This document shows positions 10,049 to 56,500 of a DNA stretch of 64,000 nucleotides, piece after piece (position 1 is the first letter of the stretch; every line of letters begins with the position of its first letter). Below the pieces are notes generated by a model. That model did no database searches and was not told the origin of the DNA. It saw only the letters and a program-made list of their open reading frames with translations. The translations under genes were made by a program, and so were the position numbers. This DNA comes from a virus. Location of the stretch: positions 1 through 64,000 of IMG/VR virus record IMGVR_UViG_3300025013_000002. One strand, written 5' to 3'.

Positions 10049-10124
10049 TGGAGCCACTGACAGGAATCGAACCCGCAACATCTTGGTTACAAGCCAAGCG
10101 TTCTTCCATTTGAACTACAGCGGC
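10049..10124 (-). tRNA. tRNA-Thr(UGU) with encoded CCA
   Basis: Reverse complement folds as a cloverleaf: GCCGCTG acceptor, GTTC/GAAC D-arm, CTTGG-CT TGT AA-CCAAG anticodon arm, GCGGG-TTCGATT-CCTGT T-arm, 3' TCCA; 76 nt. Confidence 0.95.
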
Positions 10125-34803: not shown

Positions 34804-34877
34804 CTCTCCCTCCTAAATTCACTTCCGAATTCCTACTCCAAAAGGAAGCGGCCTCCAAGAAACCGCCTCCCTCCAAA

Positions 34878-35234
34878 TCAACCCTCAATAATATCCGAGA
34901 TCTCCTTCAGCACTTTCTTCCCCTTCGCCGTCAGATAAACCGCGTTCGCCTTTCGGTCATCTACGTCGGGGCGCTGTGCAACCAACTCGTAACCAGCTTT
35001 CGTTTTATTCCCATTGTCGGATTCTACCAGGTAGACCGAAAGTTTTTTGACGTTTCGAGAAACGGTACCTTGGGGCCACCCAAGTTTCTCCGCTATTTTC
35101 GGTTGCGTGATCCCATCCTGCTCAGCGATTGCCAGTAAAAGCATGACGTGCTGCAGGGGAAGTTCTGCGAATATTTTTTCCAGCACATGCTGCGCCTTCT
35201 TGAACTTCACGAGACCACTTGTTAATCCAGCCAT
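34878..35234 (-). CDS. MarR-like winged-helix DNA-binding protein
   Basis: IAEQDGITQPKIAEKLGWPQGTVSRNVKKL...DRKANAVYLTAKGK. Confidence 0.85.
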   Translation of the reverse strand: MAGLTSGLVKFKKAQHVLEKIFAELPLQHVMLLLAIAEQDGITQPKIAEKLGWPQGTVSRNVKKLSVYLVESDNGNKTKAGYELVAQRPDVDDRKANAVYLTAKGKKVLKEISDIIEG

Positions 35235-35326
35235 TTTGTTTTCCTCCTTGTTTTGGTTTTATTTTCTAAGCCAGCAATTCAAATTAGAATTTACATTCGA
35301 TTGTGAATTGCCTAACTCAAAAATTT

Positions 35327-35683
35327 TTAAGCTGAGGATTCCACGATGGACCTCAACTCCTTGAAAATCTGCCTTCCTCTAATCGACAGGACCACTTCTC
35401 GTTCACGGCGGTTCTCCAAGCTGATTCTCAAATTGATCAGCCCGTAGCCCATTTTCACCGTCCTCTTGGAATCTATAGCGACCAAATAAGATGGACCCAG
35501 CAGCCTCAACATATTTGTTAAGGTGGCTCTGCCCAGCTTAGAAAGGTCCTTCAAATCCGAGATTGTGATTCCTTCTTGCTCAGCTACCAGCAAGAATAGG
35601 TTTATCAACGAGGACGAAATGCCTTTAAATCTCTCTCCGTACAACTCCTGGAATCGCTCAGCGTAAGCAGGGTCGAGAGGCAT
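35327..35683 (-). CDS. second MarR-like winged-helix protein (paralogue)
   Basis: VAEQEGITISDLKDLSKLGRATLTNMLRLL...NRREREVVLSIRGR; probable ATG 35683 downstream of a TTGACA promoter. Confidence 0.8.
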   Translation of the reverse strand: MPLDPAYAERFQELYGERFKGISSSLINLFLLVAEQEGITISDLKDLSKLGRATLTNMLRLLGPSYLVAIDSKRTVKMGYGLINLRISLENRREREVVLSIRGRQIFKELRSIVESSA

Positions 35684-35786
35684 GTCGTCTCCAGTTGGTA
35701 TCCATTTGTGATTAAGAATACACATCTGATCCGAGAGTGTCAAGCGGTTTGACTCAGATTTTCAAAACAAGGAGGTTTGAATTGTT

Positions 35787-36545
35787 CTACTCGGCCACCT
35801 CGATGTCGTCGAAGCAACCAGGAAACCTCGCTTGCATCAACCTGAGAAGCGGCATTGAAACCTCTCGCATTTGCGGATGTGCTGCTTTCGCCGTCCTGAG
35901 TTTGAAGAACAGGCGCCACTCTCGGAGATTTGCGGTCATTACGAGTTCTGTTTTTAGGCTGTTGGGGAGGACCGAACGGGCTTGCTCGGGACGCTCACCA
36001 AGGTGGCGTTGGCGCAAGTAGTTGTCCTCAGCCAGTTGCATTGAATAAAGCCAGCCGGTCATCGGGTCGCCTAATTCTTCCAGCGTGGCTCTTGCTGCGT
36101 CGTCAGTCGCGATGCTTGCTTCGCCCGGCAGCAACTGAGGATACCAAGGCGGTATCATGAACCCCAAGCTCTGAGGTAGCCACTCCGCATCACAAGCAGG
36201 GCAAGTAACCTCCGCGTACCTAGCCTCCATAGACCCACCACAAGCGCCACATACCACTCGTGCGGCGTAATCACAATAGCGAGTCGATTCCTGACTGAAG
36301 CTCGCGATCCGGTGTCGCACAAGCTCGTGCGAGACACCCCGGGCACACACAAACCTAACCGAAGCTGCAGCATGTTCTAAAACAGACTCGTGGCCGCGCT
36401 TCAGGATCATCGCTACGAACTTCTCTGCGGAGTCCTCGGTGATCTTGTCCTCTGACTTGTAGCAGGTCCTGCCTGCGAGTTCGATCAGCTTCAGGGCGTC
36501 CGGGGTGGAGGATATGATTTCTACTGAGGGTTTTATAAGTCTCAC
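35787..36545 (-). CDS. thyX: flavin-dependent thymidylate synthase
   Basis: GHESVLEH, RGVSHELVRHRIASFSQESTRY, ARSVLP, NLREW..F.KLR...AHPQMR. Confidence 0.95.
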   Translation of the reverse strand: MRLIKPSVEIISSTPDALKLIELAGRTCYKSEDKITEDSAEKFVAMILKRGHESVLEHAAASVRFVCARGVSHELVRHRIASFSQESTRYCDYAARVVCGACGGSMEARYAEVTCPACDAEWLPQSLGFMIPPWYPQLLPGEASIATDDAARATLEELGDPMTGWLYSMQLAEDNYLRQRHLGERPEQARSVLPNSLKTELVMTANLREWRLFFKLRTAKAAHPQMREVSMPLLRLMQARFPGCFDDIEVAE

Positions 36546-36865: not shown

Positions 36866-37471
36866 TTAAAAATGTCGATATTCCCTAGCCAATTTTAAAA
36901 CTTTCCTCACGTATTTCGGATTCCTCTTGCCTCTGCTGAAAGCCCCAGTGCCTAAATTATAAACCTGAAGCCCGTTCCGGACCCCATACTTCGTCACGTA
37001 CTCCTTCAGGATTTCAGCAGAGCACCTGATGTTAACCTCGGGATCGTACTTTTCAGACTCCTTCGTAATTAAGGGGAACCGGTCGGCGTGGGCTTTGAAG
37101 TCCACCTGCCCAGAGCCCTTCGCACCGGTCCTACTTCTAGCGAAGGGGTAGCCCTCGGACTCAGCAGTGATGACCCCGACTAAAAGGCTCAGGTCCAGGC
37201 GTTGCTCTTTCGCCGCAGCAATGGTAGCTGCTGCCTGGTACTCAGCCAGCTCAGGCCAAAGCCGCTCGTTCTTCTCCATGTACCACAGCGTCAGCCGCTG
37301 GGTTGCTGCGTTGACTTCCTGCTTTTTACCTTCGACCAAAACTTGGGCTTTCTGATCCACCTTCTGGACTTCCAAGAGCGCCTTGGTTGCGACCGCAGTT
37401 GCCGCTGCTGTTAAAATCACCAGCACAACTCCGATCTGGGCCAGGTGAGCCACCCGGATTTTAAGCCTCAT
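36866..37471 (-). CDS. membrane-anchored lytic transglycosylase (SLT domain)
   Basis: N-terminal hydrophobic segment; VITAES (catalytic Glu), S.TGAKG.GQV, DPEVNI, YNLG. Confidence 0.85.
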   Translation of the reverse strand: MRLKIRVAHLAQIGVVLVILTAAATAVATKALLEVQKVDQKAQVLVEGKKQEVNAATQRLTLWYMEKNERLWPELAEYQAAATIAAAKEQRLDLSLLVGVITAESEGYPFARSRTGAKGSGQVDFKAHADRFPLITKESEKYDPEVNIRCSAEILKEYVTKYGVRNGLQVYNLGTGAFSRGKRNPKYVRKVLKLAREYRHF

Positions 37472-37616
37472 TTGCTGCTCCTTTTCTCAAAACGTACTCC
37501 TTGTCGATCAACTCTCTGAGGATCAGGGATTTGTTGGATTTCCCTGTTCCTAATCTGACGAGTTCCTCTAGTTTTTTAGTAGTGTCCTCGTCGAGTGCGA
37601 TGCAGTGCTTGACCAT
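37461..37616 (-). CDS. ribbon-helix-helix (CopG/Arc-like) regulator, 51 aa, not in ORF track
   Basis: Own translation: MVKHCIALDEDTTKKLEELVRLGTGKSNKSLILRELIDKEYVLRKGAANEA; upstream AAGGAGGT. Confidence 0.6.
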   Translation of the reverse strand: MVKHCIALDEDTTKKLEELVRLGTGKSNKSLILRELIDKEYVLRKGAANEA

Positions 37617-37839: not shown

Positions 37840-37902
37840 AATTCAGATCTGAGTATATACCATCTCACCTACCAAGTCAAGATAAAAATTCACTTGTGAA
37901 TT
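37840..37902 (-). promoter_or_regulatory. sigma70-type promoter flanked by motif-A sites
   Basis: AATTCACAAGTGAATT-6 nt-TTGACT-17 nt-TATACT-CAGATCTGAATT. Confidence 0.7.
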
Positions 37903-38459: not shown

Positions 38460-39143
38460 TTAAACAGGACCAATCCTCACCAAGAGATTCTTGACGCCCT
38501 GCGAGGTCCAAACCTTTTTCTTCCTGGGAGTCTGGATTCCTGCTTCGGTCAATTGCTGAGCCAGCGCCGTTAAAGATGTGATGCCCTGACTCTGAAATTT
38601 GAGGATCTCGGGCTTCAACTTCTCGGCTCTGAGATCCGCCTTTGTTCGGTTTTTCAGGGAGCCTTGGATTCTGCCATCACTGAACTTCTCGGAATCTCTA
38701 TTCAAGTGGCAGGCCTTGCCCAACTGAACTCCCTTCGCCTTAGCCGCTTTCAGGCCGTTCTTGGTCCTCTCCCTGATCCTCTCCAGCTCGTACTCAGCTA
38801 CGCACCCGAGCACGTTCAGGACGAATCTGGAAGCGTTGGGGAAATCGCAGATGATGATCTCGACTCCGGAATCCAGGATCGCCCCGAGAAACGAGAGGCT
38901 TCTGGAGAGACGATCAAGTCTTGCTGTGATCAGCCTGCAGCCGGTCAACTCGCAGTAGTTCAGGGCCTCCTTCAAGACCGGTCTTGAAGGAGGCCCGCCG
39001 GATTCGACTTCTACAAATTCCTTGATGACTACGAGATTGTTCCTAGCAGCATATTCCGCCCGAATAGTCCTCTGCGCGTCAAGGCCATGCCTTTCCGACT
39101 GAGATTTAGTGCTCACCCTATCGTAGCTGACCACGCGCTCCAT
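38460..39143 (-). CDS. serine recombinase (resolvase catalytic domain + short C-terminal DNA-binding domain)
   Basis: YDRVST..Q, E.ESG...RPVL, ARLDRLSR, AEYE...IRERTK.GL; C-terminal SL..LA..L...GI.TPR...WT..GV; ATG 39143. Confidence 0.92.
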   Translation of the reverse strand: MERVVSYDRVSTKSQSERHGLDAQRTIRAEYAARNNLVVIKEFVEVESGGPPSRPVLKEALNYCELTGCRLITARLDRLSRSLSFLGAILDSGVEIIICDFPNASRFVLNVLGCVAEYELERIRERTKNGLKAAKAKGVQLGKACHLNRDSEKFSDGRIQGSLKNRTKADLRAEKLKPEILKFQSQGITSLTALAQQLTEAGIQTPRKKKVWTSQGVKNLLVRIGPV

Positions 39144-45772: not shown

Positions 45773-46069
45773 TTATGCCTCCTTTTTGTTCAGATTCAAA
45801 ACTCCCAGTGTCCGGTCGTAGGTTTTCTGTAGTCCCTCGCCTAGAGGGTGATTCAGCAGGTGGTGGGCGTATTCGTTCAGGAGGCCCAGCAACTCCTCCC
45901 TCTCGTTCACGGCATCGCAGATCGTCTTAGCGATCTCCCTCGTTTCCTCATTCGTCTTGCCCTGGACCTCCGCGATGACTTCCATGTTATCAGTCAGGAT
46001 CTGCGTGGAGTCTACGAGGGTCTCGGCTATCATGACGAAATGAAGCGGCATTGAAATGTGAGATTTCAT
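45773..46069 (-). CDS. hypothetical protein (divergent AN..LI family member)
   Basis: EIAKTICDAVNEREELLGLL; ATG 46069 lies inside a motif-B copy. Confidence 0.6.
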   Translation of the reverse strand: MKSHISMPLHFVMIAETLVDSTQILTDNMEVIAEVQGKTNEETREIAKTICDAVNEREELLGLLNEYAHHLLNHPLGEGLQKTYDRTLGVLNLNKKEA

Positions 46070-46711
46070 TTTTTTTTTATTCCTCCTAGTTGAGCAGGCA
46101 AGCCTGCAAGAGTTCAACCAAAATTCTGAGTTGTTCAGGGTCGAGGTTCATTTTTGGATCTCCCCTGTCGAGTAATAAACCTGGCCGTCGATCACGATCT
46201 GGTAGCTTTTGAGACCTTCGGCATCGGCCAGTTGCCTCATGTAAGCCTTAATCTGCTCGGTGCTCGAAATGTTGAACTCTCCACTGAATGGAACCCAGTT
46301 GTACTCACCAGGATCTCCGAGTATTTCGACGTAAGCGTAATGCTTGACCATTTGGCACTCTCCTTTACCTTGTTCTGAGAGCAAGGCACCCTCTTCCGGG
46401 GCTGTTTATCCACAAGTGAATGGGAATGTATATGTGAATTTTAGTTTGGCCTTTGTAGGGCATCCTCGTTCGATTCAGCCCAAATCCTTTGCAGGTCGAA
46501 CCTGCTCCTGTACCAAGCCAGATCCTCGATCCTGGTCATGCTGACTCCGGTGGCTTGGTTCTTCCTCGGTTGATCGTAGACGCAGAGCTTGCCGTCCTCG
46601 ATCTCGTACCAGCGTTGAGCTTTCATTGATCCTCCCAATCCTGGTACACTTTCCAAAGCGCCCAGAGTGTAGCTGCTACGATGACGAAGAAGATGAGGTG
46701 GATGGTTTGGG

Positions 46712-46996
46712 TCATTTCGAGCCCTCCTTGGCTTTTCTGATTGCTTCGCGAGCTTTGCGCCAATCAGATGCTAGAGGCGGGTTGTTCCCGGTGTCCTGCC
46801 AGCGCACCAGATTTTCCAACGCCTCCAGCAATTCCGGAGCAGCCGCCATCAAATCCGCATTTGCCTGATATTCCTCCTCGTAGCGGTTGTAGACCAAGGC
46901 GATGTCGTAATCCCGTTCATCCGAAACGATTCCTTGGCTGTGATCTCCAGCGTGGTTGACTAGGCGCCAAGGACCTGGGGAAAATTTATTTTTCAT
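46712..46996 (-). CDS. PGPW / AN..L..AAPELLEAL family protein
   Basis: FSPGPWRL...QANADLMAAAPELLEALE. Confidence 0.75.
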   Translation of the reverse strand: MKNKFSPGPWRLVNHAGDHSQGIVSDERDYDIALVYNRYEEEYQANADLMAAAPELLEALENLVRWQDTGNNPPLASDWRKAREAIRKAKEGSK

Positions 46997-47279
46997 TTTG
47001 AACTCCTTTTGCTTTGGCTACGACCCGGCGAGCCTCTTCCCAGGATGCTGTGTCAGGTAAGCCCCAAATCGTGATTAGATCCTCCAGCGCTGCGAGAAGT
47101 TCTGGAGCTGCTGAGATCAAGGCACAATTTGCCTCGTCGATTTCCGTTACCTGCTCACTGGTGAGGTGGGGAAGTACGTCTTCAGGATCGAGTTGAATTT
47201 GGGCTCCAAGAATCTTGTAGAATCCGTCCCTGTAGCCCTCCACGTTCCAGGGCATAGGTGTAAATTTATTGGTGCTCAT
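46986..47279 (-). CDS. PW / AN..LI.AAPELL.AL family protein, close paralogue of 44606-44920
   Basis: PWNVEGYRDGFYKILGAQIQLDPED versus PWNVTGYLDGYYKILGAQIELDPED. Confidence 0.75.
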   Translation of the reverse strand: MSTNKFTPMPWNVEGYRDGFYKILGAQIQLDPEDVLPHLTSEQVTEIDEANCALISAAPELLAALEDLITIWGLPDTASWEEARRVVAKAKGVQNEK

Positions 47280-47692
47280 ATCTTCCTCCCAGCCGCTATC
47301 AAAATAAAAGCGGCGAATGCTCCGGTTAATGTTAGAAGCTGCAGGGCTCCGATGGTTTGGTCGAAGAGGGTCATTTTTGGACCTCCAATTCCTTCCTGAT
47401 CCAAGCCGCGAGGTCATCTGGTCTGCAACCAGCGGAAGGCCAATTTTTGACCATCCGGTCGAACTCGCGGATCTTCATTTCTTGGTTTTGCTGGATTACT
47501 TCGCTCGCTTCCAGACCCATCTCCCTATAAATGTGACTGGCGTTGTCGCCAGTGTTCTTGGCACTGACGGATTTGTCTGTGGCCAAATCGGTCCAGGTAA
47601 AGGCCTAATAGCGGTTGCAGTAGGTGTCCGCTTTGGAATTGTAGATGGTGATTTGGGCTTTGATTTGTCGGATCATTTTAGGCCTCCTCTTG

Positions 47693-48337
47693 TTAGTCCC
47701 CGCTCGGAAAGTTCTTGCAAACCTGGATGTGCCTGGTCTTAATCTGTTCGTCTGACATGACTGCTCTTGGTCCGCGACGGTAAATCTGCAGCGCCAAGTT
47801 AAGTGCAGCGCCCCACTGAGATCCAGATAAGCCTAGAGCCTCAATCCGTTTGTTCGCAAATCCTGCAGCTTTAATTTCCTTCTGGTTCCTCTGCCAAGTC
47901 TCTTGGTCCTCCCAGGCTGAATAGTCGTAGCCCCTCTCAAGCAAATGCCTAAGAATCTCAGCGGTTGTAATTTGGATAGCTTGCTCGTACCCAGGACCAA
48001 ACCCTCCCATCGAAATTGACCGGACTGATTTTCCTTTGTCCCATCTGTTCAACCAGTCAGCAGCATCAGTGCCGTAGATCTCGATCTGGCCGTGCTCTTT
48101 GTCCTCTGCTTCGGTGCGATAGAAAACTTTCTTTCCGTCAAGGAACACTCCGCGCACCACAAAGCCTATCCCACGACCGTAGAATCTTATTTCCATACCT
48201 TCCTCTGGAATCACAGGGGAGGAACTAGGGATGAAGAAACCCCACCCGTCATGCTTGGTAATCTCCCATCCATTACCTACGGCGTTAACTTTTTTGATTG
48301 TGGCTACTTCGAACTGCAAGTCATTTTCCGGGAACAT
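47693..48337 (-). CDS. hypothetical protein
   Basis: 214 aa, AAGGAG RBS preceded by motif B. Confidence 0.75.
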   Translation of the reverse strand: MFPENDLQFEVATIKKVNAVGNGWEITKHDGWGFFIPSSSPVIPEEGMEIRFYGRGIGFVVRGVFLDGKKVFYRTEAEDKEHGQIEIYGTDAADWLNRWDKGKSVRSISMGGFGPGYEQAIQITTAEILRHLLERGYDYSAWEDQETWQRNQKEIKAAGFANKRIEALGLSGSQWGAALNLALQIYRRGPRAVMSDEQIKTRHIQVCKNFPSGD

Positions 48338-48408
48338 AATTTTTCTCCTTTAAATGTGAAATCTCACTTTTCTGGGAGACTCCCGAAGGAGCCTCCCTCC
48401 TTCATAAC

Positions 48409-49011
48409 CTACTCCCCGAAGTAGAAGCAGCGGCAGTATTCAAGCACGATCTCTTCCTCCTCGGAAGTCAATTCAAGAGGTTCCCAAGGAGTGAACCAGT
48501 CCTGGTAGAAGATCTCGGCGGACTCGGGCTGGTTCCACTGACCGAGTTCCCCCTCGATCTTAACCGCAGGTCCTCCGGTGCAGAGTAGGATCTGGAACTC
48601 TTCGGCGGAGTGATCCTCCGAGCCGGGGCAATACCAACCCGAGCGGACCTGAACCGAGAGGGGATCTTCGTTGATACGCTGGCGAGCGTCGTCGGCGTCT
48701 TTGCACTCGCCTGCTTCGGCTTCGAGTTCGTCGAGTTCCTCCTGATTTTCTTCTTCCCAATCCGAGAGTGCTTTTTCCGCCTCGTCGTTAGCCTCCTTCA
48801 ATTCGAGGTAGCTGGCAGCCCTGAGGTTGCAGTTGTCCGCGTAATCCTTGAGATCTCTTGCAGCGGTTGTGAGTGTGTCGCGGAGATCCTTCTTCTCCTC
48901 CCTCAACTCCTCCAGCCGATCCCAATCCAAATTCAACGCCGCCACCATTTCCTTAATGGATTCAAACTGCGCTCGGGCCTGGTCTTTCGCTCTTTCGTTG
49001 TCGTTGCTCAT
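48409..49011 (-). CDS. highly acidic coiled-coil protein
   Basis: Glu/Asp-rich; C-terminal ILLCTGGPA..I.G.L......YQDWFTPW; motif B before RBS. Confidence 0.75.
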   Translation of the reverse strand: MSNDNERAKDQARAQFESIKEMVAALNLDWDRLEELREEKKDLRDTLTTAARDLKDYADNCNLRAASYLELKEANDEAEKALSDWEEENQEELDELEAEAGECKDADDARQRINEDPLSVQVRSGWYCPGSEDHSAEEFQILLCTGGPAVKIEGELGQWNQPESAEIFYQDWFTPWEPLELTSEEEEIVLEYCRCFYFGE

Positions 49012-49094
49012 TTTGTTGCCTCCTTGTTTAGGAAATGTGAAATCTCACTTTCCTATTGTTAGAGAAAAATAATGGATATACTCAAAGATTTTAC

Positions 49095-49124
49095 TTGACA
49101 CGGGGCCAGCACTCGTGGTATAAT
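49095..49124 (+). promoter_or_regulatory. antisense promoter element 3
   Basis: TTGACA-18-TATAAT with extended -10 TG, facing against the surrounding minus-strand genes. Confidence 0.6.
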
Positions 49125-49305
49125 GCGGCTACTTTTCCGAAAGGAAAATAATATATAGTACTTATATAGCCACGATTTAAGCCTCCCTGATTCCCTCCTC
49201 TTCCTGCTCTAGCAGACACTCCGGACAAATGCAACCTGGATTTTTGGTTGTTTGGTGGAAATGCCTGTCGCATAGGACGCATTCGGTGGTCATTGGTGGG
49301 CCTCC

Positions 49306-49935
49306 TTATCCCTGATAAATTTTCCCGTCGTCTCCGACGTACAAGTCCACTTCCCCGAATCGCTTAGAAGAAGATGTCAGCCGCTCGCCAGCATCTTTAG
49401 GCCAATCCCCATCCCAGAATCCACAGCCGTGTCCGTTCCGGGTGAGCCAGAAGTCGTGTCCTGCCTTGGTGAAATCCAGGCCGATGTCCTCCCAATTCTC
49501 GTTGATGAAGCGGGCGCAGTCCTCGTCCATTTTTTGAAACGTCTCTGGCGCGAGGTCTGAGATTCCGTAGTTGTAGTCGAGCGGAATGTCCTGGTCGTCT
49601 GTGGAAGACCACAGCGTGGCCTCAATATAAGCCGTTAGAAATTCGTTGATCGAGGGGATCTCCTCCGCATTAGGGAAGATCTCTTTGAATTTCATCCTAG
49701 CCTCATTCCAATCAGCAGCCCTCAAAAATGCCGCCTGCTCCTCGTCGTCTCCATCTCCCCAGGCTACGAAGAGAGGTTCACCACAGCCCCAGTAAGCACC
49801 GCCTGGGTCGTACCCCTCGTGGAGCGGGACCTGCTCGATGTTGATCCGAGTGACGGAATCGGCTTCCTGGAGCGAGTCAGGTCGGCCCATTTGGGCTCCA
49901 GCAGTTGAATATGCTTTCGTGTAGTTGAATTTCAT
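49306..49935 (-). CDS. acidic two-domain conserved phage protein
   Basis: GA.MGR...GYD.GGAYWG.G N-domain; F..AYIEA.LWSS...AGHDFWLTRNGHG.GFWD.DW C-domain. Confidence 0.75.
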   Translation of the reverse strand: MKFNYTKAYSTAGAQMGRPDSLQEADSVTRINIEQVPLHEGYDPGGAYWGCGEPLFVAWGDGDDEEQAAFLRAADWNEARMKFKEIFPNAEEIPSINEFLTAYIEATLWSSTDDQDIPLDYNYGISDLAPETFQKMDEDCARFINENWEDIGLDFTKAGHDFWLTRNGHGCGFWDGDWPKDAGERLTSSSKRFGEVDLYVGDDGKIYQG

Positions 49936-50187
49936 TTCATCCTCCGAAATGTTGTATAGCTTTGTCCGTTCGCATAGCAGCGATGCGAGACAGCGCCGGT
50001 AATGTCATCCCCGCACTTAGGGCAGCAGGCTTTATAGGGAGGCTTCGGTACCTCAACGAAGGAATTTTCGTGGGCGTACCCTGTGTACTCCCGCCCACAG
50101 TAGGAGCAACTTAGTTCTACTGTGACCCCACTGCCCAGGATCACTTTGTCCTCCCGAAGAGGCATTCCGCATTTGCAGGTCATGGAT

Positions 50188-50649
50188 TTAGTCCTCCCCT
50201 AGTATGGCGAATCGAGTCCTGCTCCCTGCCAAGTAGGTCCCACAGCAGTCGCAGTCACTCGTAGAGAATTCGTCTTCTCCGTGCTCTCTTTCACTGAGTT
50301 CCGCGCTGGAGCAATGAGGGCAACCAGGGACTTCTTCGGGCTCGCTGCAGTCGGAGCACTCCAGCCCTTCCTCTACTTGCCAAGTGCATCCTTCGCAGTC
50401 CGGGTTTTTCACCTTGATCAAGTTGCTCTCCAGCAGGTACTCTCCGCAGTCGTAGCAGGTGAACTCCTTTTCGTCGGTGCAGTCTAAGACTAGGTGAGGG
50501 CCTAGATCCGCCAGTCCTCTGTCGATAGCTTCGATCTTGGCGTCAAGCTCCTTCCCATCCAGGTAATAACCCAAGCCAGAGTAATCGGCGTTGACTGCTA
50601 CCATCGTGCAGTCGGCGCAGAGCCAGATGTCGCGGTGAAGAACTTTCAT
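50188..50649 (-). CDS. Cys-rich acidic protein
   Basis: Multiple CxxC pairs; motif B directly before GGAGG. Confidence 0.7.
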   Translation of the reverse strand: MKVLHRDIWLCADCTMVAVNADYSGLGYYLDGKELDAKIEAIDRGLADLGPHLVLDCTDEKEFTCYDCGEYLLESNLIKVKNPDCEGCTWQVEEGLECSDCSEPEEVPGCPHCSSAELSEREHGEDEFSTSDCDCCGTYLAGSRTRFAILGED

Positions 50650-50680
50650 TTCATCCTCCAAAAAAAATGTGAGATTTCAC

Positions 50681-51214
50681 TTAGTAGCCAAGCGTCTCTT
50701 CCTCGTCGCCGCCCAAGCACGCTTCTTCGCGCTCGTCCTCTTCCTCCTGGTATTCGCGCTCCTTCTCGGCAGCATCTTCTGCCAACGAATCGGCAGCGTA
50801 GGCCGCGCTAACTTCGTCGTCGTAGATGTGGTCCGTCTCGACGGAAGTAGCCATGCCTTCACCCATCGACCAGCCCACGATAAAACCTCTGTCGTGGTTA
50901 AGCCGGATCACGATTCCTCGGATTTTATCGCTGTCGCCGTACTCGTCGGTGTACCAGCCGGTGTGCCCAATCGAGGCGTCCGCCACCTCATCGCACCATT
51001 TCCAGCGGTGGATAGGATTCGAGAAGTCGCTGTCGAGGTAGCAGGAGAACCCATCGGCGTTAGGCGTCGGCGCCGAGTAATAACCTCCGGTGTGCTTGTA
51101 TCGCTCCTGGCGCTGCTTCTTGGTTCCCTTCGGTAACTCACTCAGGTATTTAGGGAAATTGAATCCGGCGAAGGTGAATTCCGTTTCAAGCTTGCGTTGG
51201 CGTCCTTTTAACAT
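50681..51214 (-). CDS. acidic hypothetical protein
   Basis: ATG 51214 after AAGGAGG; HTGWYTD...IRGIV.RL; Glu-rich tail. Confidence 0.75.
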   Translation of the reverse strand: MLKGRQRKLETEFTFAGFNFPKYLSELPKGTKKQRQERYKHTGGYYSAPTPNADGFSCYLDSDFSNPIHRWKWCDEVADASIGHTGWYTDEYGDSDKIRGIVIRLNHDRGFIVGWSMGEGMATSVETDHIYDDEVSAAYAADSLAEDAAEKEREYQEEEDEREEACLGGDEEETLGY

Positions 51215-51434
51215 GGGGTGCCTCCTTAAATGTGAATATTCACTTCTGAATTGATTAGCGCCAAACCTGGAGGTCAAATTTTGAATCCTCCGGGAACCTC
51301 TGCTTCATTTTTTGAACTGCCTCTTCCTCCGAAGCGGCGTCGATGTAATACCCTTGTCTTGCTGAAGGATCTTTGTGTCCGGGGCATCCTGGCTCGTAAA
51401 GATCGGGACGGGTTAGGCGGAATTGAGGCATGGT

Positions 51435-51749
51435 TTAGTCCTCCTTCTGGGTGCTCAGTTTGTCAAGTGCTGCACCCCACTTTGTGAGCCTGTCCTCTTC
51501 AACTTTGAGGGATGCCCGCTGCCTTTCGATGCTCTCAGCAGCACTTTTGATTTCTGCCTGAGCCTCAACCAGAGCGGATTCCAGGTCAGGGTGGTACATA
51601 TCAACTCCACAGCGAGCAACCCTACCGTCGCCATATCGAATCTTGAGGGAGGGTAACCTGCATCCCGGCAAAATGCCCTCTTCAAGTACGGTTATCGTTT
51701 CAATCGAGATGGTACCATTGTCGTTAAAATGGATGTCATAGCGTTTCAT
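51435..51749 (-). CDS. hypothetical protein
   Basis: ATG 51749 after GGAGG and motif B. Confidence 0.65.
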   Translation of the reverse strand: MKRYDIHFNDNGTISIETITVLEEGILPGCRLPSLKIRYGDGRVARCGVDMYHPDLESALVEAQAEIKSAAESIERQRASLKVEEDRLTKWGAALDKLSTQKED

Positions 51750-51777
51750 CTTGTCCTCCCTCGTAAAATGTGATATT

Positions 51778-52161
51778 TCACTTTTTGCTTCGTTCACTCA
51801 ACTCATCGACCGCCAGAATATTGCTGAAGTAATCCCCTTCGTTCCCTGCGGAGGAATACTTCTCGTTCACGAAATCATCCTCCTCAAATCCCTGCTCCAG
51901 AGCGTCCTTCCTGAGTTCCTCGATATAATCCGGATCTGCGAAGTAGCCTTTGTACCCCTTGTCCTTGCAGTAGTCGGCTATGGCGTCGTGGCAGGCGCCT
52001 AGATCCGAGTTCCCGTGAATCAAAAATCCTGCCGAGACATAGCAGCCGGTGTCGAGCCAGATGATGTAGGTATTGGGCCAGAAGTGCTTGTCTGAAGGAT
52101 TCACGTAGTCGATGGATTTGCGGCACTCCCGGAGCCACTTGGCGAATTCAGTTCGTTCCAT
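51778..52161 (-). CDS. acidic hypothetical protein
   Basis: AGGAGG RBS after motif B. Confidence 0.7.
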   Translation of the reverse strand: MERTEFAKWLRECRKSIDYVNPSDKHFWPNTYIIWLDTGCYVSAGFLIHGNSDLGACHDAIADYCKDKGYKGYFADPDYIEELRKDALEQGFEEDDFVNEKYSSAGNEGDYFSNILAVDELSERSKK

Positions 52162-52662
52162 TTCCTACCTCCTAAAAAATGTGAGATTTCACTTTTTACT
52201 ACCTAAACATCCAGCTACACATCACCAAGCCGCAGACAGCAACCAAACAAACCAAGATCCTCCCTACGGCGGCTTCAGTTTCCCTTTTCTGTTCGAATTG
52301 GGCTCTCTGTTTGAGGACGGTGGTGGAGACGTAGTTCACGAAACCACCTCCACTCTCTCCATCCTGAGATCGACCCAAGCCAATCCATCGTTAAACTGCA
52401 CCAGGACCATATCCGCCAATTCTTCAAGGCAGTGACCAATTCCGGTTCCGATTACGTAAACTTTTTGATTTTTCATTTTGTGGCTCCTTTTCCCGTAAAA
52501 TGTGAGAATTCACTTTTCCATCAAGATTCACTTCTGAATACCTTAAGCCACCAAAATCCTCACCACGTAAGGATGGCCGTAGTTCATGAACCAGTCCCAG
52601 GTCGTTTTGATCCTTCTTGTCTTGCCTGATTTAGTTCTGACTTCGCAGATGATCGTCATGGC

Positions 52663-53079
52663 TTAGTCCTCCTTTTCTGGCGCCGTATTGCGCGCATCGC
52701 AGATTTCCCATTCATTCAAGCTTTCGTCCACCACATGGACCATCTCAGCGACAGCCACCCTTTTCCCGCAGGAGTCGCAGGCTCTCATCGTGGGGTCCTC
52801 TAAATACATCCCTTCCCCACAACAAGGGCAGCGCTCGCCGTTGTCTTCGATTTCCCCTCGCTTAGACTTTTGCTCACAATCGGGGCACTTTATTTCCTCG
52901 CCTCTAGCCTCCCGTTCGATTTCATGCTCGATGTACTCTTCTGCCAGGGTCTCGGAGCGAAATGCGGAAACGTGGCCATACCTACCAAGCAACTCGTTCC
53001 ACCTCTCGACAGCTACCCAGCCAATCCCGGTTTGCCCTGCAGGCACAATTCTGTAAAATGGGATTTTGATGAATTTCAT
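52663..53079 (-). CDS. zinc-ribbon hypothetical protein
   Basis: CPDC, CPCC, CDSC; AAGGAG after motif B. Confidence 0.7.
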   Translation of the reverse strand: MKFIKIPFYRIVPAGQTGIGWVAVERWNELLGRYGHVSAFRSETLAEEYIEHEIEREARGEEIKCPDCEQKSKRGEIEDNGERCPCCGEGMYLEDPTMRACDSCGKRVAVAEMVHVVDESLNEWEICDARNTAPEKED

Positions 53080-53109
53080 TTTGTGGCTCCTTTCGTAAAA
53101 TGTGAAGTT

Positions 53110-53406
53110 TCACTTTTTACCTTTCAGCCATTCCCTAATCCGAATCATCCCCTCGCTGCTAATCTGCCAGACCGGAACTCCACCATCCAGATAAAGGCCC
53201 CTCTCTTGGTCGCCTTCCATTAAAGTGCTTAGGTAGTACCTGGACACGAACTGACCGAAGTCCGTATGATCGTAACGGCAGTCATAGAATTCGACCGTCG
53301 GATCATCTTGGTCGTGCTCCAGGCAGAAATTGAGTCCGTATTTATCACCTTTTTGTACGATCCGGACGAGCCAGATCATTCCTTGGTCGTTGAATATTTT
53401 GATCAT
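53110..53406 (-). CDS. conserved hypothetical protein
   Basis: VRIV..GD.YG...CL......VEFYD.RY.....GQFVSRYY..TL.....GL.LDGGVP.W. Confidence 0.7.
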   Translation of the reverse strand: MIKIFNDQGMIWLVRIVQKGDKYGLNFCLEHDQDDPTVEFYDCRYDHTDFGQFVSRYYLSTLMEGDQERGLYLDGGVPVWQISSEGMIRIREWLKGKK

Positions 53407-53557
53407 TTTTGAGCCCTCCTACCGCACCATTTTCGATGAAGAAGTTGTTCGGGTACTTCAGCTCCAGGCAGTAGACGATGGTTTCCAGTGGGAATCCTCT
53501 GTTGACCAGTTGCTGCACGTAGGCTTGCCAAGGCAGTTTCATTTTTAACCTCCTTCT

Positions 53558-53615
53558 GACCGCAGGTTTCCTCAGGTTGATTGCTTCGCAGGAGAACATG
53601 AGGAAACCTGCGGTC
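53558..53615. repeat. hairpin element C, copy 1
   Basis: GACCGCAGGTTTCCTCA-24 nt-TGAGGAAACCTGCGGTC. Confidence 0.85.
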
Positions 53616-53626
53616 CAACTATCAAG

Positions 53627-53836
53627 CTACTCAGCCCACATTACCAGATCCGAGAAAAGACCCTCGGCCTCTGGGAGTTCCCACAGCCCGTCTTTGTTCC
53701 TGGAGGCTATTATCGTGTCTCCGTCAGGTCCGCTCCTCAGTTCTCCGTAGGTTATTTGCATGTAATCCGAGAAGGGGCCTAAGTCCTCACTCATGGTCGA
53801 GGTAGCAACATTTTCACCGCGTACATAGTAATTCAT
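53627..53836 (-). CDS. hypothetical protein
   Basis: ATG 53836 after AAGGAG. Confidence 0.6.
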   Translation of the reverse strand: MNYYVRGENVATSTMSEDLGPFSDYMQITYGELRSGPDGDTIIASRNKDGLWELPEAEGLFSDLVMWAE

Positions 53837-53963
53837 TTTATTCTCCTTTTGGTTGATGGTGGTTGAACTCGGTCGATTCAAATAAATGTGAAATTTCACT
53901 TTTACGAAAACCTCAGTAAGATAGCCGTCGCCCAAACAACTCCGAGCCAAACTATAGGTGCCA

Positions 53964-54260
53964 TCATATCGTCCCTCCGTGCTTTCGGATAATCTCCCGG
54001 ACAACTTCCAGAGGGACGTATGAATAAACGGGAGAACCTTCGTAGGTATGATAAGGAGCCAAAAGTTCTTCTGGTTTGTTAGGGAACCCAACCTCGACAT
54101 CCGAGTACAAAGCGAGCTTGAAGAAGTCCATTGTCTTAGGACAACAAGCGTGACGATCGCTTGCCTGGACACTCATCATAAACCCGTCTTTGCACACGAT
54201 CTGAGGGAATAAAACTCCCTGGGTCCTTGTGGGAAGTTTGATTTCAATTTTGGTGGACAT
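53964..54260 (-). CDS. conserved phage hypothetical protein
   Basis: IVCKDGF.MSVQAS..H.C.P....VEVGFP......VY.YVP..VV..II.KHGG. Confidence 0.75.
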   Translation of the reverse strand: MSTKIEIKLPTRTQGVLFPQIVCKDGFMMSVQASDRHACCPKTMDFFKLALYSDVEVGFPNKPEELLAPYHTYEGSPVYSYVPLEVVREIIRKHGGTI

Positions 54261-54602
54261 TTGGATCTCCTTTGTAATTACGGGCTATTTCCGAAATGGG
54301 CGGATAGGGATGAGGGGAAAGAACTTTATAAAACCTTTGTCTTGGCGTTTATAGCGGGTTTGGATCTTTTCGTCAAGCATTTTAATTCACATGTGTATTT
54401 AAATTGGAATGTGAAACCTCACTTTTATGGTTTATTTGACGGGCGAATCAGGTAAACTACGCAAACTTTGCATAGCTGGTGTAAAACCTTATTAAATACG
54501 CAGGTTTAGTCAGGTTTCTAGCGGAGCTTGGATATTGAGTTATGCCTGCGGTGGATTAGGGAGGATGCAGGATCAGTCAATTTTCCAGCGAAGCTTTAAT
54601 CA

Positions 54603-54646
54603 TGAGGAAACCTGCGGTTGAATTGGGAGCTTCGCAGGTTTCCTCA
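54603..54646. repeat. hairpin element C, arm-swapped copy
   Basis: TGAGGAAACCTGCG-16 nt-CGCAGGTTTCCTCA. Confidence 0.8.
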
Positions 54647-54689
54647 ATTTTAATGCGAAGCTGGTTGGCTTGAGGCGGACTGCGAGGTA

Positions 54690-54902
54690 TTAAAGCACTT
54701 CTTTCTCCGTGACGAAGTATTCGCGCTCGAAACCTTCGGGAGCGTTGATCTGCCATTCCTGGCCTTTGGCGTGCGCCTTTTCGCTGGAGGAAAAGAGGAA
54801 GGTTTCAACCCAGCGATCATCCGAGTAGGGCTCAAGGGTGTCTTCAATCTGCGCGAGTTCATAGACGATCATTTTAATTTCTCCTTTTTCTCGTTTCCCC
54901 AA
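54690..54902 (-). CDS. small acidic hypothetical protein
   Basis: AAGGAG RBS before the internal MIVYEL; true start is probably that ATG. Confidence 0.55.
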   Translation of the reverse strand: MGKREKGEIKMIVYELAQIEDTLEPYSDDRWVETFLFSSSEKAHAKGQEWQINAPEGFEREYFVTEKEVL

Positions 54903-54976
54903 GTTCCAACGCGTTTCCCTTCCTAGATCAAAAAGGATATACGCGCCGGTCCTGGGGGTTTTTAGGTAGTTCGTTT

Positions 54977-55006
54977 AGGCGCTATGTGAAATTTCACATA
55001 GCGCCT
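54977..55006. repeat. perfect 30-bp palindrome centred on motif B
   Basis: AGGCGCTATGTGAAA|TTTCACATAGCGCCT. Confidence 0.9.
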
Positions 55007-55679
55007 CTCAAGGTCGAGCTACGATCCGCGCCCTGGACCTGCAGGGCACCTCTTTTGCTCCATCTAAAGACTGCGAACATCCGTTTGCAGAGTTTAGAAA
55101 ATGTGAAATATCACTTTTATTTGTTCCATTATGTAACACATCCTGGATGAAATGTGAATTTTCATATTTTCTAAATAGAGCGGGACCGGCTCGATGCTTT
55201 GGGCCGGTCCCGCTTTGTTGCCTCAAAAATGTGAACTTCACATTTTTAATGAGCTTTTCTTTAACCAGTGAACCGATTGCCTCATGCCTCGCCTTTCTTA
55301 TCAGCGACACAACTATTAGCAGGACGGTCAGTATCTGGCGTTTAAACGGCCCTTCTGTTTAGATGTATGGTAGCACCTCCCCCGCTTCTTATCTCTCGAC
55401 TATAAGGGGATATTCCGCCTTTCCAATCTGTTACCTTGTACCGTCAGGCAGACTCCCATAGTTGGGGCCTCTGTCTGCAGTCATTTGGATTGATACAAGT
55501 CAAGGATCGAACGCGCTAAATCTTGTGCTGATCCTGTCGGCAATAGGTGACAGGTTCTAAGGTTTCGTGCCCTATAGCGGGACACTACTTTCTCCGTTTG
55601 GCATTTTGCTAGAATGCCTGTACAGGTGTCAAGCTGTACACGTCATGCCTCAATAGTCTCAATGAGCGGGGAAATGATA

Positions 55680-55740
55680 CAAGGGTCTTGCTCTGTAGCT
55701 TCTAGATCCTACACCTAGAAGCTACAGAGCAAGACCCTTG
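55680..55740. repeat. perfect 26-bp inverted repeat with 9-nt loop
   Basis: CAAGGGTCTTGCTCTGTAGCTTCTAG-atcctacac-CTAGAAGCTACAGAGCAAGACCCTTG. Confidence 0.9.
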
Positions 55741-55765
55741 CCGGTTAGGGCAAGGGCCTTTGGCG

Positions 55766-56200
55766 CTAGGCAGAGGCACCGGCCTTTTTAGCCTCTTTCA
55801 TGGCTTTTTCCAGAGCTGCGAAAAGCCCCTCATTCCCTGCACATTTCGTCATGACGGCCTTAACGTAGCTGTCAACGTTGAACTCTTTGGTGCAGTTGGA
55901 GTTATCACCGCTGTTCCTGATGAAGTCATACAGCCTCTTGAGGAAGCGCCCACACTCGCCTTTGTCCTGAATAGCCTCGGTGTATTTCTCGGGAACGTCG
56001 CGGCCAGCCTGCAGCATGGCGTTGTGTACCGTGTGAACGTAGCCGGTTGCCTTTTCCGGCACGCCGAAGTGCGTTTCGATGGTGGAGATGGTATCCATCA
56101 TGCGGGTCTGTTGCGAGGCGTAGGCTTTGCTCTCTGCGTCAACGGTTTTCAGAATGGCGGTTCTAGCTTTGATACCCATGGACTCGATTTGCTTTTTCAT
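55766..56200 (-). CDS. hypothetical protein, first gene of the leftward transcription unit
   Basis: ATG 56200 after AAGGGG, downstream of a TTGACT-17-TATAAC promoter. Confidence 0.65.
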   Translation of the reverse strand: MKKQIESMGIKARTAILKTVDAESKAYASQQTRMMDTISTIETHFGVPEKATGYVHTVHNAMLQAGRDVPEKYTEAIQDKGECGRFLKRLYDFIRNSGDNSNCTKEFNVDSYVKAVMTKCAGNEGLFAALEKAMKEAKKAGASA

Positions 56201-56392: not shown

Positions 56393-56500
56393 CTCCCCTC
56401 GGTCGATCCCTACGACCTCCCCTCGGTCGATCCCTACGACCTCCCCTCGGTCGATCCCTACGACCTCCCCTCGGTCGATCCCTACGACCTCCCCTCGGTC
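56393..56500. repeat. perfect tandem repeat, 24 bp x 4.5
   Basis: Unit CTCCCCTCGGTCGATCCCTACGAC at 56393, 56417, 56441, 56465 plus a half copy at 56489. Confidence 0.97.

Follow-up and report, generated by a model that had tools for sequence, protein, structure and literature searches.

What acts on the short palindrome that recurs between the early genes of this groundwater phage, and does it do so on DNA, on mRNA, or at sites of gene exchange? We analyzed a stretch of 64,000 nt (the window) of an 82,561-bp contig. On the minus (transcribed) strand, the repeat, motif B, reads aAAAGTGA-N4-TCACATTTt. It is 19 to 21 bp long and is a near-palindrome, dyad-symmetric save for one base. The initial annotation had listed at least 14 copies and a variant with a 3-nt center (N3), and all 15 places are real.

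The pattern AAATGTGANNNNTCACWTT, with up to two mismatches, has 26 strand matches in the 64-kb window, where 0.29 are expected, and none of 100 shuffles reached 26. The matches comprise 13 N4 loci from 46054 to 55150, which coincide with the annotated copies. An additional weak site in reverse orientation is at 43759. A scan of the whole contig agreed with the proposed confinement to about 9 kb: every match with at most one mismatch lies within 46054-55168, and all 12 GTGA-N4-TCAC cores lie within 48356-55114. Motif B read backwards, used as a control, had no match on the 82,561-bp contig. A second motif, motif A, has the hexamer GTGAAT in common with motif B; it is spread genome-wide in the same phage, whereas motif B occupies only 46054-55245 of the 82,561 bp. 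The reported overlap of the two was found at 51238-51251. All motif B copies have a single polarity, as had been claimed; they lie in one co-oriented operon, so strand and transcription direction coincide. A search of the window with Rfam models at gathering score matched only a tRNA at 10052-10124, and none matched motif B. The repeated early-gene palindrome is confirmed as an observation. Its copies and neighboring elements are as follows.

55227-55245, minus strand: N3 variant AAATGTGAAGTTCACATTT, a perfect palindrome just upstream of the terminator hairpin; kept in W, G001, G002, and L038
55173-55213, minus strand: intrinsic-terminator-like hairpin with T-rich tail, between an upstream structured RNA region and the motif B head copies
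55150-55168, minus strand: motif B head copy, AATATGA...TCACATTT, in a block nearly invariant in three of three aligned relatives
55099-55117, minus strand: motif B head copy, 51 bp downstream of the 55150 copy, without a nearby ribosome-binding site (RBS)
54982-55009, no strand: 28-bp perfect palindrome with a motif B core (GTGA-AATT-TCAC at 54986-54997)
54407-54425, minus strand: motif B copy with an A-like site and promoter P2 downstream of it and no adjoining RBS
54348-54376, minus strand: promoter P2, TTGACG-17-TATAAA, kept in five of five contigs that hold the stretch
53884-53902, minus strand: motif B copy, start codon 47 nt downstream
53098-53116, minus strand: motif B copy, a pattern match
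52498-52516, minus strand: motif B copy, then Shine-Dalgarno sequence (SD) and ATG; a motif A site lies 9 nt upstream (52526-52539)
52177-52195, minus strand: motif B copy, then SD and ATG
51766-51784, minus strand: motif B copy, then SD and ATG; the upstream gene stops at the left-arm TGA
51228-51251, minus strand: composite site in which motifs A (51238-51251) and B (51228-46) overlap, then SD and ATG
50665-50683, minus strand: motif B copy, then SD and ATG
49033-49051, minus strand: motif B copy, then SD and ATG
48352-48370, minus strand: motif B copy, then SD and ATG
46054-46072, minus strand: degenerate motif B copy with an ATGA arm; the SD is upstream, and the left-arm ATG is the predicted start codon (MKSHIS...)

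The initial annotation placed the motif before the RBSs of successive genes and named a systematic scan as the test. We called genes by our own simple rule of open reading frame plus SD, and the scan bore the association out. Of the 13 N4 copies in the window, 8 have an SD no more than 12 nt downstream, and their ATG lies 13 to 21 nt past the motif. At least two related groundwater phages also carry motif B, as do 11 contig fragments, and 81 distinct contexts were drawn from 15 sequences. An SD lies 1 to 10 nt downstream of the motif and a start codon 13 to 22 nt downstream in 53 of these 81 contexts. The start codon is inside the motif in 5 of 81 by the gene calls and in 7 by eye, and 19 of 81 copies have no gene start within 60 nt. 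The window copies at 53884, 54407, 55099, and 55150 and the palindrome at 54982 do not adjoin an RBS.

The median intergenic gap is 39 nt with motif B and 3 nt without it. This occupation of gaps between uncoupled early genes, and the U-rich run immediately 5' of the SD, would suit a standard 5' linker, a small hairpin with an AU-rich standby stretch that insulates each RBS without a trans-acting partner. However, such a role would need no sequence-invariant arms, uncoupled genes outside the early 9 kb lack motif B, and some copies are far from an RBS. We regard a linker as highly improbable.

Base-by-base conservation agrees with the claim of fixed arms around a variable 4-nt center. Position by position, the left-arm GTGA is kept in 69, 80, 81, and 78 of the 81 contexts and the right-arm TCAC in 81, 81, 81, and 76. 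The four center bases vary, with at least 14 different centers among 61 intact cores. The commonest arm variants are G>A on the left (12/81) and C>T on the right (5/81). These mirror each other, so on DNA they are the identical half-site change, which favors a DNA operator. In RNA, the commoner variant breaks a pair, while C>U keeps a wobble pair. The right arm and T run are more strictly kept than the left arm, which counts against a DNA operator.

The one asymmetric base is an A that replaces T before the left GTGA. At this mismatch position, A is found in 72 of 81 contexts on the left and in 81 of 81 on the right. Its state follows mRNA context: T is present in 2 of 53 RBS-adjacent copies and in 7 of 28 others (Fisher p 0.007, with copies that are not independent). 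Neither the N3 nor the 28-bp palindrome adjoins an RBS, and each has T on both sides. The A removes an AUG and breaks an otherwise perfect 8-bp hairpin with a U run. We read the asymmetric A as a probable concession to being transcribed.

These features raise the main rival to a DNA operator, an operator at the RNA level. A phage protein would bind a small hairpin with the conserved A.A mismatch beside the RBS, and early-class translation would be repressed or the polycistronic RNA cut into units. The element would then resemble the targets of T4 RegA or RegB, or the sites that RNase III cuts between the early genes of T7. The identical polarity relative to transcription, the 53 of 81 contexts with SD and start codon downstream, the start codons in the left arm of five copies (seven by eye), the retained mismatch, and the strict conservation of the right arm and U run all argue for it. 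We also take UCAC/AUUU of motif B to resemble an RNase E type site, which would point the same way.

However, the RNA itself gives little structure. The stem has 4 bp and about -3 kcal/mol, with a T run after it, and probably does not terminate transcription. Folding energies are -3.1 to -4.1 kcal/mol for nine of the 14 window copies, and z is -3.6 or lower in only 4 of 14; the N3 variant folds at -9.4 kcal/mol. Among the 81 contexts, which were collected by a sequence pattern with up to two mismatches that limits how many structure-preserving variants can be observed, both sides were altered in 1 of 553 cells. The covariation score was 0.069. Shuffles averaged 0.068, and 231 of the 500 equaled or exceeded the observed score. 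In the terminator-like hairpin at 55173-55213, by comparison, the stem sequence differs in G002 and the pairing is kept, and therefore the changes there are compensatory. The fixed stem and free loop of motif B are the opposite of usual protein-bound RNA hairpins, and the pair-breaking G>A outnumbers the wobble-keeping C>U. Copies upstream of P2 and at the operon head lie far from an RBS. Pfam searches with 70 proteins revealed no RNA-binding domain except RtcB. The earlier suggestion of an RNA hairpin thus fares poorly as an autonomous structure and stands as a protein-bound RNA operator, which we consider unlikely but weightier than any other competitor.

The copies had also been proposed as recombination sites that make each early gene an exchangeable cassette. 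Gene turnover is real. Across motif B, the same upstream gene is followed by different, unrelated genes, and the SDs after the motif vary from copy to copy, each moving with its downstream gene. Population variants are joined at or next to motif B in run X5 (47387>48347, 49488>50662, and 49651>52168) and in run X8 (51749>52175). Of 858 homology ends, 287 fall within 30 nt of a motif B center, a zone that makes up 9% of the span. A recombinase gene is also present.

38460-39143: small serine recombinase, resolvase-type, 87.9 bits

However, turnover is about as frequent without the motif. Variable junctions make up 35 of 54 instances with motif B and 23 of 45 without it, and homology ends per site number 3.38 and 2.71, respectively. 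All 15 sequences keep a colinear gene order free of permutations and inversions, a pattern that single-site insertion would not give. Therefore, an integron-like recombinase reading is unsupported. Serine recombinases need matching central bases, and the centers of motif B differ between copies. The serine recombinase, named earlier as a possible catalyst, is 7 kb distant with no motif B copy beside it, and nothing links it to the sites. An integron attC array was rejected as well: order is colinear, no tyrosine recombinase adjoins the array, and the only tyrosine integrase is about 9 kb away on the other arm (contig positions 63933-65171). An attC site is 57 to 141 bp long, with paired core sites and extrahelical bases, and motif B is 19 to 21 bp. 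That motif B is primarily a recombination site for exchangeable early-gene cassettes, served for example by the small serine recombinase, is in our view highly improbable.

The remaining proposal, a repressor array on DNA, fits best, with invariant arms, two-sided changes in 1 of 553 cells, and copies away from RBSs. In the conserved head block, two or three copies are kept at fixed spacing, away from any RBS. A copy lies upstream of the A-like site and P2 in five of five contigs, which also favors a DNA operator. The fixed arms, variable center, lack of compensatory change, weak hairpin, and copies near P2 and the operon head therefore point to a DNA operator, and we see an even chance that motif B serves as one for a dimeric, phage-encoded regulator. 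The pattern, its positions, its conservation, the lack of covariation, and the gene turnover are observed in the sequences; we infer binding, the identity of the protein, and any effect on expression.

In this model, the operator would pair two directly adjacent 7-bp half-sites, W-GTGA-R-W, in head-to-head orientation; together they form a 14-bp core with an A tract on one side and a T tract on the other. A dimeric phage DNA-binding protein would control the leftward immediate-early operon from copies at the operon head, upstream of the internal P2, and in nearly every translationally uncoupled early gap. Protein bound in the gaps could stall RNA polymerase and mask the ribosome-binding region. 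Recurring at many junctions, the identical 20 bp and SD would also supply homology for module swap or loss, which we regard as a by-product. The palindrome at 54982 lies in a stretch of about 118 bp that is unique to the present phage, and run X5 contains the joint 54943>55062.

Promoter evidence is mixed. Motif B has no conserved -35 upstream or -10 downstream, with information of at most 0.18 bits at -7 to -1, and a promoter scan gave no enrichment (12 found versus 9.9 expected). P2 is absent from the scan list because the final base of its second hexamer is A. TTCACA of the 55150 head copy could serve as a weak -35, and the scan did not flag a promoter at this copy. The head promoter is poor and poorly conserved (TACATA, TACAAA, TCCAAA), which counts against a DNA operator; therefore, the head copies may also be transcribed by read-through. 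The single operon, the RBS adjacency, and the start codon sometimes inside the motif count against it too, since an mRNA translational operator would be expected to show them as well.

Three phage proteins are candidate readers.

34878-35234, minus strand: winged-helix protein of the MarR type that may read motif A or B; MarR_2 score 36.9 bits (cutoff 27)
35327-35683, minus strand: winged-helix protein that may likewise read motif A or B; weak MarR match, 17.1 bits; kept in G003 and G004
37461-37616, minus strand: CopG-like protein (ribbon-helix-helix, 51 aa), the third candidate; RHH_1 18.1 to 19.6 bits, just under the 20.5 cutoff

The first is 88% identical in G003 and G004 and has two A-like sites upstream of its gene. 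It is paralogous to the second (30% identity, E 7e-14). All three are kept in G003/G004, the one relative that holds the stretch. No motif B copy lies close to any of the three genes that encode them, which counts against a DNA operator.

With the phage-encoded readers at the stage of candidates, a host global regulator or nucleoid protein might instead bind motif B and couple the early genes to a host signal. We take the arms AAATGTGA and TCACATTT to equal the CRP consensus arms. By our own count, the 55150 head copy would be centered about 37 to 41 bp upstream of a possible start site, the position used by class II activators. However, a CRP/FNR-type operator is spaced as TGTGA-N6-TCACA, and all 12 window cores of motif B have a 4-bp spacer, the N3 head variant a 3-bp one. 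Across 185,579 species genomes, a scan found just nine single matches, in unrelated taxa. We consider a host factor very unlikely.

One phage factor might also read motif B twice: in DNA form, as an operator at promoters, and in nascent or mature mRNA, as a polar element beside the RBS. The 20-bp unit and SD would then be a portable "regulated start" that each newly gained early gene takes over through recombination at the unit, its left arm giving the stop of the preceding gene (TGA) or the start of the following one (GTG/ATG). The early region would be a self-standardizing cassette array without a dedicated recombinase. This combination is, we think, distinctly unlikely.

The locus is a useful test bed. 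It offers two related motifs from one hexamer, three small candidate DNA-binding proteins of which two are paralogous, a polar base that tracks mRNA context, and a natural population with many cassette variants. A reader, if found, would show how a temperate groundwater phage switches a whole class of small early genes, and whether such repeats act on DNA, RNA, or both. Short dyad repeats at early-gene junctions recur in unrelated phages, and we know of no reader demonstrated for any of them.

Cluster A stoperators are asymmetric 13-bp sites that are read by a monomer and spread genome-wide. Motif B is dyad-symmetric save for one base and lacks the genome-wide spread. Its orientation does follow transcription, though a single operon cannot separate this from strand. 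The immunity repressor binds stoperators and halts elongation. Like the motif B copies, many of them lie inside operons and are oriented with transcription, besides the early-promoter site (PMC9283540).

The omega heptads of pSM19035, (T/A)ATCAC(T/A), are likewise 7-bp TCAC-containing units that abut in either direction, and one ribbon-helix-helix dimer of the omega repressor binds each heptad (PMC4627068). The phage, too, encodes a CopG-like protein. However, the motif B units face each other (GTGA..TCAC) and differ from the heptad in the second base (PMC4627068), and the resemblance is one of half-sites only.

T4-type PeSL cassettes are described as repeated regulatory elements between small early genes in a hyperplastic region, where relatives differ by gene gain, loss, or replacement at the elements (PMC2839356). 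In these respects, they are like motif B. However, a PeSL is a strong sigma-70 promoter with a terminator stem-loop (PMC2839356), whereas motif B has no -35/-10 pair, no promoter enrichment (12 versus 9.9), and a weak hairpin, and turnover in the present phage is not special to motif B junctions.

The 17-bp dyad repeats of Cluster O, TGTTCGG-N3-CCGAACA, share invariant short arms and a variable center, and they too occur by the dozen, either between genes or where genes start (PMC4351075). In that account, their reader is not known, and one repeat also flanks a gene found in only one Cluster O genome (PMC4351075). They are genome-wide without meaningful orientation, whereas motif B spans 9 kb and has one polar base.

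The Cluster K repeats, SAS and ESAS, are confined to non-structural genes in one orientation, and ESAS lies just upstream of SD and start in many gene families, as motif B does (PMC3203893, PMC12699233). ESAS are reported as inverted repeats without compensatory changes, considered by the authors more likely to be DNA-binding sites, with a function still untested in 2025 (PMC3203893, PMC12699233). ESAS differs in its 17-bp imperfect arms and 4- to 13-bp spacer, against 7- to 8-bp arms and a fixed 4-bp center, and sequences, host, and phage lineage are unrelated. It also accompanies a separate 13-bp SAS that contains the SD, GGGATAGGAGCCC, 3 to 7 bp before the start (PMC3203893, PMC12699233); the motif B repeat excludes the SD, and no such SAS was found, the SDs varying among copies. 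Motif B has the ESAS-type trait itself, an inverted repeat directly 5' of many SDs, in one orientation and without compensatory changes. It is a further case of a phage repeat type with published analogues in Cluster K and Cluster O mycobacteriophages.

Motif B, the 20-base near-palindrome placed before small genes of the leftward early operon, was scanned for as AAATGTGANNNNTCACWTT with up to two mismatches. The window gave 26 strand matches, against 0.29 expected, and these correspond to 13 loci already picked out by the initial annotation plus a weak reverse site at 43759. The remaining two places that it had named hold a 28-bp perfect palindrome with a motif B core (54982-55009) and a variant with a 3-bp spacer (55227-55245), here called the N3 palindrome. 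Across the whole contig, matches with at most one mismatch all lie within 46054-55168, and the backwards-read control pattern had no match. The contig contains 12 GTGA-N4-TCAC cores, all at 48.3-55.1 kb, so the reported confinement of motif B to the early region is borne out. Motif B is clearly real, conserved, and under selection. The 28-bp palindrome is carried by a stretch of about 118 bp (54943-55062) that the related contigs G001 and G002 lack, as does a variant in sequencing run X5.

The whole contig is 82,561 bp long and is rated 73% complete in IMG/VR, and the source runs containing the window DNA are groundwater and sediment metagenomes. No nucleotide match to the window was found among 50,697 phage records, and the family A DNA polymerase is less than 30% identical to the best cultured-phage matches listed. 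From about 55 kb, the leftward arm opens with some 35 small genes, none with a secure Pfam match (19 scanned); the sole match in that scan was NUMOD3, on a rightward-arm gene. Replication and repair genes follow on the leftward arm (helicases, DnaB-like, PolA, RtcB, and ThyX). Because a tyrosine integrase is encoded at contig positions 63933-65171, the phage is probably temperate. Among 185,579 species genomes, neither a prophage nor a relative turned up; the motif-plus-Shine-Dalgarno (SD) pattern gave nine matches there, all single, in unrelated taxa, and dismissed as chance. The following features were also seen in or beside the early region.

49177-53079, minus strand: CxxC-rich early proteins (e.g., 52663-53079, 50188-50649, 49932-50183, and 49177-49293) that resemble zinc ribbons, with a Pfam match in none.
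47371-47676, minus strand: gene in which a TAG stands in frame at a position that is Trp in the homologues from G002 and the related locus L029, a single nonsense change or polymorphism that does not indicate stop-codon recoding.
56393-56500, between the divergent arms: 24-bp tandem repeat of 4.5 perfect copies, replaced by a different 24-bp unit in relatives; it looks iteron-like and may be an origin or a lineage-specific binding array.

Scanning IMG/VR for the exact motif returned 12 stretches. Four were the relatives G001 to G004, and the other eight, single AT-rich matches, were discarded. The motif-plus-SD scan of JGI metagenomes returned 23 stretches, with 14 relatives, mostly from one groundwater sample, and nine single matches (GC 0.26-0.70) that were discarded. 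G001 and G003 are one phage, since their overlap is perfect and a 106.6-kb metagenome contig bridges them; G004 repeats G003. From 15 sequences (the window phage, two related phages, and 11 further contig fragments) we collected 81 distinct motif B contexts. Copies less than 16 nt from a sequence start or less than 45 nt from an end were excluded, as were L026, L047, L044, and G004, which are identical to G001, G003, or G002.

On the transcribed (minus) strand, motif B reads aAAAGTGA-N4-TCACATTTt. The left arm GTGA is conserved, position by position, in 69, 80, 81, and 78 of the 81 contexts, and the right arm TCAC in 81, 81, 81, and 76. An A follows TCAC in every context, and the base preceding GTGA is A in 72 and T in the other nine. 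The dyad is broken at one position only, where the sense strand has A at both sides. The arms and the polarity are fixed, as originally described; the centre does vary but is not random, since it opens with A or G, has mostly A or T in the middle, and closes with T or C. Because of this non-random centre, motif B is better described as two putative 7-bp half-sites, W-GTGA-R-W, abutting head to head.

Gene calls were made by our own rule, an ORF plus an SD, and not by a trained gene finder. The initial annotation had placed motif B before the ribosome-binding site (RBS) of successive early genes. This holds for 53 of the 81 copies, in which the SD lies 1-10 nt and the start codon 13-22 nt past the motif. 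It does not hold for 19 copies, around which no gene starts within 60 nt. In four others, the start codon is 31-60 nt away, and in five by gene calls, or seven by eye, it lies within the left arm. In the latter arrangement, the SD precedes motif B, and the GTG or ATG of the arm opens an M-K-x-H-I frame in several unrelated families. In 14 contexts, the upstream gene stops at the TGA of the left arm. Of 163 gene junctions, 67 contain motif B; the median gap is 39 nt at these and 3 nt at the others, many of which are ATGA overlaps. Therefore, motif B fills nearly every gap between translationally uncoupled early genes.

The most likely reading, to which we give about an even chance, is that motif B would be a DNA operator for a dimeric phage regulator of the immediate-early operon. 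It is suggested by arms that are fixed in sequence around a free centre. It is also suggested by stem covariation no better than that of shuffled alignments: on the stem drawn from the dyad, two-sided changes occur in 1 of 553 cells, and the covariation score is 0.069 versus a shuffled mean of 0.068, with 231 of 500 shuffles scoring at least as high. The commonest arm variants, G>A on the left (12/81) and C>T on the right (5/81), are mirror images on DNA, whereas the commoner of the two, G>A, breaks a pair if read as RNA. The RNA hairpin itself is marginal; with a 4-bp stem, nine of the 14 copies in the window reach -3.1 to -4.1 kcal/mol, and z is -3.6 or lower in just four of the 14. Copies also exist far from any RBS, in the head block of the operon and upstream of the internal promoter P2. 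With its fixed arms, lack of covariation, and copies away from the RBS, motif B favours the repressor array on DNA, one of three alternatives in the initial annotation.

The main rival is an operator acting at the mRNA level, which we consider rather unlikely. All copies share one polarity, most have an SD or start codon close by, the mismatch is retained, and the right arm and U run are conserved more strictly than the left arm. The RNA hairpin of the initial annotation would be weak by its fold; the polarity, the SD proximity, and the retained mismatch speak for an RNA element. The mismatch may also be accommodated by the DNA operator. A T precedes the left GTGA in two of the 53 RBS-adjacent copies versus seven of the 28 others (p 0.007, for copies that are not independent), and the N3 and 28-bp palindromes, which lie away from an RBS, have T on both sides. 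We infer that the preferred DNA site is T-GTGA at both sides. Copies transcribed right before an SD would carry A because a T would create both an AUG and a hairpin with 8 bp of perfect pairing ahead of a U run.

Motif B was rejected as a promoter, because no conserved -35 or -10 element surrounds it and the 1-10 nt to the SD leave a start site no room. The promoter scan gave 12 promoter-like sites versus 9.9 expected. It is also unlikely to be a terminator; no terminator-like site coincides with any copy, and the hairpin is weak. Terminator-like sites numbered 10 versus 13.3 expected, and no known RNA family matched in the motif B region.

The head block of the operon is highly conserved and contains, in order, the N3 palindrome, a terminator hairpin, two motif B copies 51 bp apart, and a further hairpin. 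The stem of the terminator hairpin covaries between phages. The -35/-10 pair at the head is poor, varies between phages, and was not flagged by the promoter scan. A TTGACA-18-CAAAAT sequence at 55603-55632 was discarded as the conserved start of the early operon because it sits in a 17-nt insertion absent from all three relatives. The head copies may be transcribed too, by transcripts that start at the promoter of gene 55766-56200, upstream of them, and read through. Farther into the operon, the motif B copy that stands before an A-like site (motif A being a second palindrome family) and P2 is conserved in 5/5 contigs. The features around these sites are as follows.

54348-54376, minus strand: promoter P2, TTGAC(G/T)-17-TATAAA, itself conserved in 5/5 contigs, with an AT-rich upstream stretch, the A-like site directly upstream, and the motif B copy farther upstream.
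55250-55760, minus strand: ORF-free stretch after gene 55766-56200, conserved in 4/4 phages; its hairpins retain pairing despite sequence changes, and it ends at the N3 palindrome and terminator.
49095-49124, plus strand: promoter that matches the consensus perfectly, TTGACA-18-TATAAT plus an upstream TG, and is directed antisense into the early operon.

Mosaicism is strong in the early region, where pairwise BLAST gave blocks of 73-98% identity split by unrelated DNA. G003 lacks 4.7 kb of the window phage (51218-46498). Contigs G001, G003, and G004 end inside the motif B cluster (loci L022, L023, and L024), and such breaks fit a strain-variable region. In a family map of the 15 sequences, the genes keep a colinear framework whose slots between motif B copies vary; gene order is nowhere permuted or inverted. 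Across motif B, a homologous upstream gene meets unrelated downstream genes, and the SD stays with the downstream gene. Contigs of run X5 have joints at or beside motif B (47387>48347, 49488>50662, and 49651>52168), as does one of run X8 (51749>52175), from which exactly one unit is missing. The joint 52518>55226, which looked like a 2.7-kb deletion between two copies, was discarded, as it belongs to a G002-like contig that carries one more motif B copy next to the N3 palindrome.

The turnover and the joints at motif B agree with the third initial alternative, in which recombination sites make each gene an exchangeable cassette. Its recombination-site role is not supported by comparison with the other junctions. 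Departures from the commonest right neighbour occur in 35 of 54 instances at motif B junctions versus 23 of 45 without motif B. Homology ends fall within 30 nt of a motif B centre in 287 of 858 cases (3.38 per site) and within 30 nt of a junction without motif B in 266 of 858 (2.71 per site). Genes are also inserted within units, without motif B. Since junctions without motif B are nearly as variable, exchange occurs at motif B as at any conserved linker, and motif B has no special status as a recombination site, cassette exchange being a side effect and not its purpose. A small serine recombinase is encoded at 38460-39143 (Resolvase, 87.9 bits in Pfam). No motif B copy lies near its gene, and a serine recombinase would be hampered by centres that differ between copies; its action on motif B is considered very unlikely.

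Pfam scans of 70 proteins gave, on the leftward arm, three small DNA-binding proteins as candidate readers of motif B.

34878-35234, minus strand: MarR-type winged-helix protein (MarR_2, 36.9 bits versus a cut-off of 27).
35327-35683, minus strand: adjoining paralog of the former (30% identity, E 7e-14).
37461-37616, leftward arm: CopG-like ribbon-helix-helix protein (19.6 bits versus a cut-off of 20.5).

G003 and G004 have both winged-helix proteins, one of them 88% identical. Scans of viral contigs for farther relatives recovered G003 and G004 alone for one of the two proteins and nothing for the other. The paired genes (34816-35790, minus strand) are served by a TTGACA-17-TATTCT promoter of their own; two A-like sites stand in tandem between the genes, and a terminator and an A site follow the pair. 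Motif A, ATTCAS-NN-STGAAT, occurs genome-wide and beside promoters. At 37860-37900 and 54385-54398 (minus strand), it lies 7-9 nt upstream of TTGACT-type -35 boxes. Motifs A and B use the same hexamer, GTGAAT, with its relative orientation reversed, and at two early junctions they overlap. Matching the two paralogs, as dimeric regulators, with the two related palindromes would make an attractive pairing. P0001, the product of gene 55766-56200, was set aside as a reader. It had no Pfam match when scanned as a 186-aa frame; its homologues form five clusters only, all without a name, as are its Atlas matches (0.85-0.86), and the G003 and G004 contigs, which stop short of its region, lack it. For HTH_3, the contig gave only an 11.8-bit match.

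The arms of motif B equal the consensus arms of CRP; however, its spacing is 4 bp and not the 6 of CRP. For the reading of abutting 7-bp units that face either way, omega of pSM19035 offers a ribbon-helix-helix precedent (PMC4627068). The closest published analogue we found is the ESAS/SAS of Cluster K mycobacteriophages, oriented repeats directly before the SD of many non-structural genes, with no compensatory changes and of unknown function (PMC3203893). Their function was still untested in 2025 (PMC12699233). In Cluster O phages, a 7-3-7 dyad whose arms are invariant occurs more than 30 times, without orientation (PMC4351075). Cluster A stoperators resemble the repressor reading of motif B in being intra-operon repressor sites, but they are asymmetric and genome-wide (PMC9283540). 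PeSLs are likewise tied to modular shuffling, but they are promoter-terminator units (PMC2839356). Motif B adds a case to this known, still unexplained class of repeats, and its points of interest are a single polar base tied to mRNA context, a left arm that doubles as a stop or start codon, a hexamer common to a second motif family, and a short list of candidate readers.
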